A program made the position numbers and the translations under genes. A DNA stretch of 61,370 bases, counting the filler, from Sluysia triapertura (Eukaryota), in assembly GCA_046118255.1 (NCBI GenBank). It is 5 parts of 5 records of this genome, joined end to end, with 100 filler letters (N's around TTAATTAATTAA, not from the genome) between each part and the next. Parts side by side here need not be neighbours in the genome. Positions count along the whole stretch, not along the records: positions 13,564 to 25,533 come from JBJNIA010151716.1; 4 more parts are not named here. The stretch is one strand, 5' to 3'. The notes below the pieces were generated by a model. That model did no database searches and had not been told where the DNA came from. It saw only the letters and a list, made by a program, of their open reading frames with translations. Positions 16,680 to 18,710 of the stretch are shown piece by piece (position 1 is the stretch's first letter; each line of letters begins with the position of its first letter).

Positions 16680-16998
16680 ATTTTGCATTACTAAAATCCA
16701 GTGAGACTCATTTTAGTTGTGAAAGTACATCCATGCCTAATTATCATATCCTCATGGCATTTTCTCATTACCCTGCATTTTATTTCAGTTTTGTTTTGTC
16801 AAATTTCGCATAATATTTTTAATAGTCCTAAAACTTCAATTTCGTCCCCTGTTCATCCTGTGAGATATGAATGTTGTTTGGCTAAATTATTAAGTTCTTT
16901 AGTGGTTAATAATGATTAGCTTATCAATGATTCGCTACAGCTCCAGTATCCACTCATACAGATAACATTATTCCGTTTACCCTCACATCTACCATTGG
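16680..16998 (-). pseudogene. Retropepsin aspartic protease
   Basis: PMVDVRVNGIMLSV*VDTGA (DTGA at 16939-16950), TGDEIEVLG flap region, frameshifted MII/GMD terminal motif. Confidence 0.85.
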
Positions 16999-17059
16999 TT
17001 ATCTTGCACTGATAGTTATTGTTCGAACATATCATATAAATCCGATTTCTTGGAGGAAG

Positions 17060-18710
17060 TTAATATACGATTTGATTTTCTTCTTCATTATTATTAACTT
17101 GTTCTATATTAACTGTTTGTAGAGCTATTTCTTCAGTTTGTTTTTTCTCCTTTTTTAAAGCATTTAATTGAGCATGAGAGTGATGATGTAACAGAAATTT
17201 AGCTAAAAATGGAAAACAACCAATTGTTAATTTCCAAGTAAAACCTGATATTTTATAAATACCTACAATTGAAAATATTTGAGATATTATAAGCGCAATA
17301 ACTTTAATTATCACGTATTAAACCAGAAAAAGCTTGACCTTTTACTAGGAAATTTCCCCAAATTTGTTTTAAAGTATTACGTGCTGTTTTCTTAAAATGA
17401 TCAGGTCCTAACAATAATTCAAAGTTTACTTTACCATCTTTTTCTACGATTACCTTATCAACTATATCAGTAAGTACTTTTGATCTTTTAATAGGAAATA
17501 ATATTTCATGCCAAGCTGCTTGAATGTCTTCTTTAGAATAGATTTATAATCTTGGAATATTTTTAGTAGCTGAAAATTTTAATTTTGTTTTTAATTCTGT
17601 TAAACAAATAATTTCCGGAGTTTTAACTTGACTTCTATCTGGTAAAGATTATCATCAATTTTGTATTAGAACAGTGTAAGGTTTTTGGCTTAAGTTTATT
17701 AATTGGCATAATGATTCTAGTCACTGGTTCTAAATAAGTATTTTGATTTTTGTATATTACTGGTAATTCATTAGTACATTCATTTCATTTTCTTATTTGC
17801 ATTTCTACTTTTTTGCATTTGTATGTATTTAAAAATTCACCCATTAGTCCACCAAATACTCCTTCTTCTAATGGAAGTAATGGTGCCACTAAATCTGGGA
17901 ATGTTATTGCTACTGCTAAATTAGTTCCTAGTATTTCTTTATTTAATTGACAATCATAGCTATCATAGCTTGGTAAACTTTTTCTAATGACATAAGTCCT
18001 AAATGATAATAGAAATCAATTTTATTGTTAAAATACTTATTTAATTGTAAATTTTTTGTATCTATTCCTTTCTTAGATTGTAGTATTGTCTTTTCCGATA
18101 AATATATTCCTTGATAATTTGTTTCAGTGATTTCTTGTCCGCATCTGATGACTAACTTTTTTGATACAAATATTAGTCCATTTTCTTCTTTATTTGCCAT
18201 TAAAATAGTTGGAGTTTCTATTTCATCAAGTCTCTTTCTTTCTGGCATCTAAATTATCTAAATTATCTAAATTATATCTAAATTATCCTTATAAATTTGT
18301 TTTTTGTTTATTTCTCTACAGCTAATTCATCTTCGTTCTGATACCTAAATCCCGAAATTAGATTAAATTTAATTTGTTTCAAAAATATTAATGGACATTG
18401 AAATTTTTCTAATTCATATATTAATATAGATTCACAACTTGTCTGATCACTCTTACAAAATGGTCTAGACATCATAGTAGCTTTTCTAAGTTAAAACTTT
18501 CGTTAAAAGATTTTAAATTTACTACATAGGTTTCTTGAGCTACAACGTTATGGTAAATTATTTCTTCGTATTCTATTGAACCTCTTTCGCAAGTACGATC
18601 CATTAATACGTTACTAGCGGTTCTGACATTATAAATTATTTTCTCATTATTTTTAATTTTTAATTTGTCTCCTTTATTTAAGCTTATGCATCTAGTTTCG
18701 AAAGCATCTC
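17060..18710 (-). pseudogene. Envelope glycoprotein of chuvirus-G/herpesvirus-gB (class III fusion) type, N-terminus missing
   Basis: CRDAFETR...TCERG...YHNVVAQ; RCGQEITETNYQGIYL; GEFLNTYKCKKVEMQIRK.NECTNELPVIYKN...EPVTRI; IYSKEDI...LFP; WGNFLVKGQAFSG followed by hydrophobic membrane segments. Confidence 0.8.

Follow-up and report, generated by a model that had tools for sequence, protein, structure and literature searches.

We have identified, on the minus strand of a 61,370 nt stretch of DNA (filler included; hereafter termed the window), a decayed retroelement in which an envelope gene lies between gag and pol. This copy is very likely a long-dead, truncated, Burro-like Ty3/gypsy element with a class III envelope, whose active ancestor most likely encoded an Env-Pol polyprotein; gag was probably part of that ancestral polyprotein as well. 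The domain order, the class III fold of the envelope family, the single open reading frame (ORF) that joins env to the protease (PR) and to reverse transcriptase (RT) through integrase (IN) in relatives, and the decay of the copy are each demonstrated below.

Architecture and decay of the element

The genes are arranged in the order gag, ubiquitin/SUMO-like, AT-hook, Bcl-2-like, env, PR, dUTPase-like, RT, RNase H (RH) and IN, and the distance from capsid to integrase is approximately 7 kb. The pol order PR-RT-RNase H-IN, together with the presence of a YxDD motif, is that of Ty3/gypsy elements. An initial annotation, made from the sequence, had described an envelope adjoining a protease. That adjacency stands, whereas the gag, ubiquitin-like, AT-hook and Bcl-2-like portions lying upstream had been overlooked.

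The window has a GC content of ~24% and represents a eukaryotic scaffold with short-intron genes. A frameshift-aware alignment to the related protein P0003 (relatives are given here as P-numbers) reveals 18 frameshifts and 21 stops across 4,248 nt, a tally in which stops close to frameshifts are possibly overcounted, and frame breaks occur throughout the copy at a rate of one per 100-120 nt. No repeat pair that could represent long terminal repeats (LTRs) flanks the element, and no 3′ LTR is expected because the copy is cut inside integrase. ARAGORN found no tRNA genes in the window, and no Rfam family matches anywhere within it.

The envelope is a class III glycoprotein that has lost its start

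The class III (chuvirus-G/gB-type) envelope extends over 17060..18720 on the minus strand, with its start deleted and with five frameshifts. Five pieces match Pfam PF24664 (Monjiviricetes_fusion) in profile order: 18487-18720 (E=2.8e-6), 17943-18248 (E=1.3e-4), 17707-17982 (the best, E=3.5e-17), 17310-17639 (E=8.9e-12) and 17060-17308 (E=0.0098). A sixth piece (18311-18481) has no PF24664 match and is aligned to relatives by tblastn. The motif GE...KC...C..ELPV is present and is interrupted by a stop. Identity to the envelopes of relatives is 38-41%, with a value of 38% over 466 aligned residues for P0005.

An AlphaFold2 model of the P0005 envelope, computed from a 63-row alignment (pLDDT 81.7), was used to stand for the window envelope in structural comparisons with herpes gB and chuvirus G. 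Both were matched: herpesvirus gB (VZV/HSV) at E 1.1e-13 with TM 0.32-0.41, and chuvirus-type glycoproteins as the best entries of a viral structure library, at E 1.9e-43. The original assignment to class III is thus upheld by PF24664 on five window pieces and by the fold match of this relative's model. When the P0005 sequence was compared with the PDB, the best 60 of 85 matches included no solved glycoprotein, only Bcl-2 proteins.

Residues 80 and 236 of P0005 align at 18735 and 18717, respectively; ~155 env residues, signal segment included, are therefore missing from the copy. A six-frame search of the window with a profile of the env start was likewise negative (best iE 2). The alignment gap and the empty search confirm an earlier proposal that the Env N-terminus was deleted near 18710-18730.

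A second, lone env remnant lies on the plus strand at 48595-48805 and aligns over 214 nt, at 73% identity, with 18013-18226 of the opposite strand. Just before it, at ~48430-48500 on the minus strand, is a tRNA-like stretch that by eye has the look of A- and B-boxes and is possibly the head of a SINE; ARAGORN and Rfam give no report for this stretch.

Pol domains

A retropepsin-type aspartic protease (16740..16998, minus strand, as are all domains of the element) was delineated by tblastn and by frameshift-aware alignment to P0151, P0154 and P0010. Stops interrupt it, as do frameshifts near 16936 and 16740, and the piece alone matches Pfam RVP weakly (E=0.11). The last protease strand and a probable dUTPase-like domain follow at 16408..16740, where a profile of relatives (n=5) gives an iE of 3e-20. 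The corresponding stretch of P0159 has a dUTPase as its best PDB match, at an E value of only 0.31, and the position of this domain between PR and RT agrees with that in Burro.

Reverse transcriptase is found at 15632..16335 (tblastn with P0003, P0004, P0041 and P0113; Pfam RVT_1, E=0.013). It carries the sequence YIDD at 15966-15955, lacks ~73 residues near 16000 and includes a 10-base N gap at 15894-15903. RNase H at 15407..15631 is recognized by both RT_RNaseH_2 (E=5e-18) and RT_RNaseH (E=9e-18) of Pfam. The zinc-binding part and core of integrase occupy 14467..15045 (Pfam rve, E=2.5e-8) and are cut off at 14467; the alignments of relatives to integrase stop at 14470-14467, and a profile of their post-integrase region finds nothing in the window.

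The plus strand is poor in C (only 2-4%) in three intervals of the window (14290-14470, 47990-48300 and 56460-56700). The second and third are related to each other (73%) and have an 84-nt period. The first lies exactly at the integrase cut-off and does not align to the other two.

The env-protease junction

The junction between env and the protease measures 61 nt (16999..17059, minus strand) and is devoid of gag, LTR or primer-binding site. It is bounded by the stop codon of the env tail at 17062-17060 and by the first protease strand, which begins at 16998, with the DTG aspartate at 16950-16948. These boundaries reproduce the initial description of an envelope that ends ~60 nt before the protease with none of the three between them. 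The distance from the env membrane span (~17340-17258) to the aspartate is 368 nt, or 122 codons, as compared with 114-374 in 11 relatives. The linker length therefore falls within the range of relatives, which indicates that no gag or LTR was deleted at the junction and that nothing large was lost. Within these 368 nt no LTR repeat partner was found, and TGG starts do not, by eye, resemble a primer-binding site.

The first protease strand is offset by +1 from the frame of the env tail. At the rate of decay of this copy, the chance of a frameshift is 0.65 per 250-nt linker and 0.23 for 62 nt alone. Both the stop and the frame offset fit this rate, and the reading frame at the junction consequently says little. 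Local alignments span the junction in only 3 of 12 relatives.

Env and protease share one reading frame in relatives

A HMMER search with the best env piece yielded 189 matches, of which 150 were listed; a word-index homolog search with the same piece passed 0 of 114 candidates. Among the matches listed and their cluster members, env leads into PR within one ORF in at least 15 proteins from at least 12 clusters (14 proteins of 11 clusters, and P0159). The ORF continues to RT in at least eight clusters, represented by P0003, P0004, P0010, P0041, P0113, P0151, P0154 and P0159. For example, P0041 (2,146 aa) comprises a knuckle, env, PR, RT, RH and IN, and the single ORF of P0159 comprises a Bcl-2-like domain, env, PR, RT, RH and IN.

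The initial annotation had proposed that Pol was translated downstream of Env by fusion, readthrough or frameshift, to be decided by the junction frame in less decayed copies. The open frame of the relatives supports fusion. Readthrough and frameshifting are not needed, as intact relatives need neither and the junction of the window copy fits decay. Protein libraries do favour fused forms, because a fusion is visible only where the frame is open.

The envelope tree, a quick version of 62 rows with SH-aLRT support only, left out three near-duplicate rows and all matches below 70% coverage. In this tree the window envelope falls within a 16-row group (SH-aLRT 100) that contains all 11 env-PR rows, together with four further rows whose sequences stop short of the membrane region, within it or shortly past it. 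Stand-alone envelopes lie outside the group in 45 of 47 cases.

A different possibility is that Env of this sub-lineage ends at a genuine stop and that readthrough or programmed frameshifting gives rise to Pol, so that less Pol would be made per Env. Such a scheme could account for the stop at 17062-17060 and for the +1 offset, which decay alone would produce within 62 nt at the lower of the two frequencies given above, and synthesis of Env and Pol at 1:1 would be wasteful. Moreover, P0015 (omitted from the tree because of its low coverage) ends after its tail, 42 residues beyond env, and has no protease, an ending that may reflect a real stop, decay or the edge of a contig. We nevertheless consider a genuine stop unlikely. 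The relatives are open across the junction in the clusters noted above, breaks of the same kind recur each 100-120 nt all along the copy, and Ty1/Ty3-type +1 sites are absent from the junction. Three slippery-like heptamers do occur in an AT-rich context, but for none of them was a shift into the protease frame demonstrated.

The favoured reading, an in-frame env-pol fusion, leaves some latitude for gag. Five long relatives (P0004, P0113, P0151, P0154 and P0159) exhibit neither a Gag family match nor a Gag-like start in the ORF, and some members therefore possibly encode gag in a frame of its own, with a frame change upstream of env.

Two scans of prokaryotic genome contigs (with P0003 and P0156) recovered no DNA of an intact relative, and the 63-row env alignment has no stretch conserved enough for scanning. 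P0003 (HBK71150.1) is a complete element polyprotein from a 9-kb contig and is annotated as a protein of a Flavobacteriaceae MAG; this contig is probably misbinned animal DNA.

Several relatives (P0001/P0151, P0002, P0004, P0007, P0014 and P0154) carry two to seven aspartic-protease domains per polyprotein, some of them past integrase, and P0151 also has ankyrin and C2H2 domains. Residues ~115-300 of P0113, just upstream of env, have by eye the look of a DEDD-type exonuclease. According to the available text of PMC5408684, rotifer LTR elements carry DEDDy cargo.

Membrane topology and a proposed assembly route

Of the 12 relatives whose env start is complete, nine have a hydropathy peak just before env, and in all 14 relatives the ectodomain is followed by one strong hydrophobic span. 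A second, shorter hydrophobic stretch after this span is conserved, and exceeds the 19-residue threshold in only one of the 14. It was suggested at the outset that PR-RT-IN could be tethered to the cytoplasmic side of the envelope protein, and the single post-ectodomain span, as judged from hydropathy only, fits this arrangement.

On this basis, the internal hydrophobic segment would direct the ectodomain into the ER lumen and signal peptidase would cut the chain there. The one membrane span would then return the chain to the cytosol, such that PR-RT-IN would initially be tethered to the env tail until freed by the protease of the element itself. Env, and not a Gag-Pol frameshift, would in this manner load Pol onto the budding membrane. 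The Bcl-2-like domain may protect the host cell from dying.

The sequence YPx[L/I] is present in six of 11 env-PR linkers and in 15 of 39 stand-alone glycoprotein tails, and occurs four times in 12,839 aa of pol. In the window copy, the stop at 17060 falls within the YPx[L/I] stretch. This tail motif is reminiscent of late domains that bind ALIX and of tyrosine-based sorting signals, and may recruit ALIX/ESCRT or serve in sorting.

Two more hydrophobic segments, far apart, are present in all five relatives that reach past integrase, which suggests that the post-integrase region encodes a second membrane protein. Homology among these regions was not established by profile. In P0154, P0003, P0004, P0151 and P0113, the region after integrase combines a signal-like segment with an ectodomain and a membrane span at the end, and by eye some of the pieces are fibronectin-III-like.

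The fusion could be real and Pol still not be tethered in the cytosol, if the end of env crosses the membrane twice or if Pol derives from a spliced or internally started message. Conservation of the second hydrophobic stretch would suit a double crossing, as would the P0005 model, in which one long helix covers both stretches. However, the second stretch is short and contains Lys and Pro, in addition to its rarely passing the threshold. Furthermore, RT and integrase placed in the lumen are cut off from RNA and from the nucleus. We therefore regard this alternative as distinctly improbable, and retain a single span, which would place Pol on the cytosolic side.

Within the available text of PMC6431247 and PMC13524379, neither YPx[L/I] in the env tail nor a second membrane protein after integrase is described, and membrane insertion, cutting and packaging of a gag-env-pol polyprotein are not treated. 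A literature search for late domains in such elements returned, in the portions available, general retrovirus reviews only.

Domains on the gag side of the envelope

The domains upstream of env were located largely with profiles for capsid, ubiquitin-like and Bcl-2-like domains that were built from relatives only. A predicted gag capsid domain is represented by its C-terminal half at 21387..21515, which is the single match of the relatives' Gag profile (n=4; iE 0.004) in six frames of the 61 kb window. Alignments by tblastn with P0006 and P0007 begin at 21503 and are partly low-complexity, and the N-terminal half of the capsid is no longer recognisable. An N/R-rich, nucleocapsid-like region at 20915..21386, identified by eye in translation, has a similar counterpart in P0006. 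It ends with a CCHC-like knuckle (~20957-20915) that by eye is degenerate and frameshifted, and Pfam zf-CCHC does not match there.

A helical segment and a putative ubiquitin/SUMO-like domain at 19529..19813 match Pfam PF11976 (Rad60-SLD) at E=0.01, below the cut-off. A profile made from P0154, P0007, P0048 and P0003 has its sole six-frame match here (iE 0.001), and a PDB search with the piece returned nothing relevant. A GRP motif at 19197..19232, which we take to be an AT-hook, is identical to P0004 at 10 of 12 residues, and GRP motifs precede env in P0004, P0007, P0151 and P0001.

The BH1/BH2 half of a predicted Bcl-2-like domain lies at 18735..18941, within an open frame that spans 19004-18684, and is the sole six-frame match of a profile from three relatives (iE 4e-4). 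Pfam Bcl-2 is matched by three of the four aligned members (best E=2.6e-5), but not by the window member alone. Similarly, a profile of the four members finds Bcl-xL as its top PDB entry (E=4.8e-4), and the window frame alone gives no PDB sequence match and no Atlas match. A structural model of this domain (pLDDT 54.8) has BCL-2 in the top Foldseek rows at a nonsignificant E of 2.6, and a broad structural search starting from the same weak model was not informative (best Z 6.4; Z 4.8 for Bak and for schistosome BCL-2).

Although the capsid, ubiquitin-like and Bcl-2-like signals are singly weak, their predicted order and positions agree. The chance juxtaposition of an env remnant or endogenous chuvirus glycoprotein with an unrelated pol, via deletion or nested insertion, could draw on the genuine deletions in the copy (env start, part of RT) and on the existence of a lone env remnant at 48595-48805, but is largely refuted and very improbable given that gag-side domains, env and pol are collinear to the same relatives (P0003 from 18717 to 14470), that the linker length is normal and that in the tree the envelope clusters with the fused forms and away from nearly all stand-alone rows.

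Relation to known elements

The layout itself is not new: the available text of PMC6431247 describes it for Burro, and that of PMC13524379 reports elements ordered gag-env-pol in nematodes, bryozoans and flatworms. Burro, or GYPSM1, is a giant gypsy element of planarians (Jurka 2007 and Grohme 2018, cited in PMC6431247), in which Gag, a PF11976 Ubi/SUMO-like domain, a BCL2-like domain, a mononegavirus-type env, PR, a dUTPase-like domain, RT, RH and IN are reported to reside in one ORF. As far as Burro is covered there, the window element likewise has Ubi/SUMO-like and then BCL2-like domains before env, and in-frame env-pol is found in at least 12 relative clusters, the junction in the window being too decayed to read. 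P0151, with 4,844 aa and ankyrin repeats, is comparable to a Burro protein of 4,873 aa.

In contrast, the Burro ORFs of ~4,900-5,100 aa in that source include MATH, BIR, ankyrin or midasin domains, whereas the window element is compact (~7 kb), decayed and without LTRs. In three frames of 18699-23200, Pfam matched none of MATH, BIR, ankyrin and midasin, with a sensitivity that is lowered by decay. The window element also has one protease, as opposed to the two to seven of several relatives. Because it is compact and lacks MATH, BIR and ankyrin matches, we have filed it as Burro-like within the GAG-ENV-POL group and not as Burro.

Intact GAG-ENV-POL errantiviruses with an HSV/gB-type env are present in Nematoda, Bryozoa and Platyhelminthes according to the available portions of PMC13524379, where the names in supplement 1 occur 72, 20 and 18 times, respectively, at two occurrences per row. 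The window element shares with these a gB-type env between gag and a Ty3/gypsy pol, and differs in that those copies are intact and the window copy is decayed. By eye, the window envelope is closest to the Platyhelminthes_C1a rows of that source (Schmidtea mediterranea errantivirus 1-6), and is unlike 17 C2 rows and one C1 row from nematodes there. The env piece at 18215-18093 and Smed_errantivirus_2 (supplement 2) are identical at 21 of 41 positions in an ungapped alignment made by eye, and one Schmidtea mediterranea errantivirus row lists 215 copies. The main text of PMC13524379, in the form available, makes no mention of Bcl, ubiquitin, Burro, late domain, ALIX or frameshift.

Env precedes pol in other systems as well. 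Nematode endogenous retroviruses (NERV) reportedly carry gag-env-pro-pol as a continuous ORF. Their likeness to the window element lies in an env placed before pol and in a glycoprotein that comes from an RNA virus (Sacco et al. 2022, as mentioned in PMC13524379). Mosquito BEL/Pao elements with a chuvirus glycoprotein (Dezordi 2020, as mentioned in the available text of PMC13524379) have their glycoprotein family in common with the window element. A BEL/Pao assignment was rejected, as relatives contain RVT_1, RT_RNaseH, Integrase_H2C2 and rve and no Pao-type Pfam family, which indicates a Ty3/gypsy-type pol.

Since the arrangement has been published and the copy is dead and truncated, this copy adds little when taken alone. 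Its relatives, on the other hand, yield concrete predictions for which planarians with hundreds of intact copies would be suitable: a signal segment inside the polyprotein, a single membrane span, a protease on the cytosolic side, YPx[L/I] in the tail and, past integrase, a second membrane protein. More tentatively, and with some doubt on our part, the host might be a non-planarian, such that the Burro-type lineage extends to another animal group in compact form, with a novel mode of assembly wherein Pol is made between two membrane proteins and the late domain that drives budding is a YPx[L/I] motif of the Env tail and not one of Gag. The non-planarian reading derives from the GC content of ~24% and from introns of 29-48 nt, the latter from a crude scan of one flanking gene. 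If it is correct, the known range of Bcl-2-carrying retroelements would be widened.

Other features of the window

Among the host genes, a dihydropteridine-reductase-like gene with these very short introns lies at 23400-24245 on the minus strand; one exon has one homologue match, which is fungal (49%). Also on the minus strand are a piece of a potassium channel (11799-12754), a divergent bestrophin in one 332-aa frame (6179-7177), for which no match was found among 2,628 candidates, and a weak MULE transposase match (3509-3925). Runs of N at 13464-13563, 25534-25633, 38119-38218 and 50041-50140, spaced ~12 kb apart, each enclose a 12-base spacer with stops in all frames, and these constitute the top repeat families of the window.
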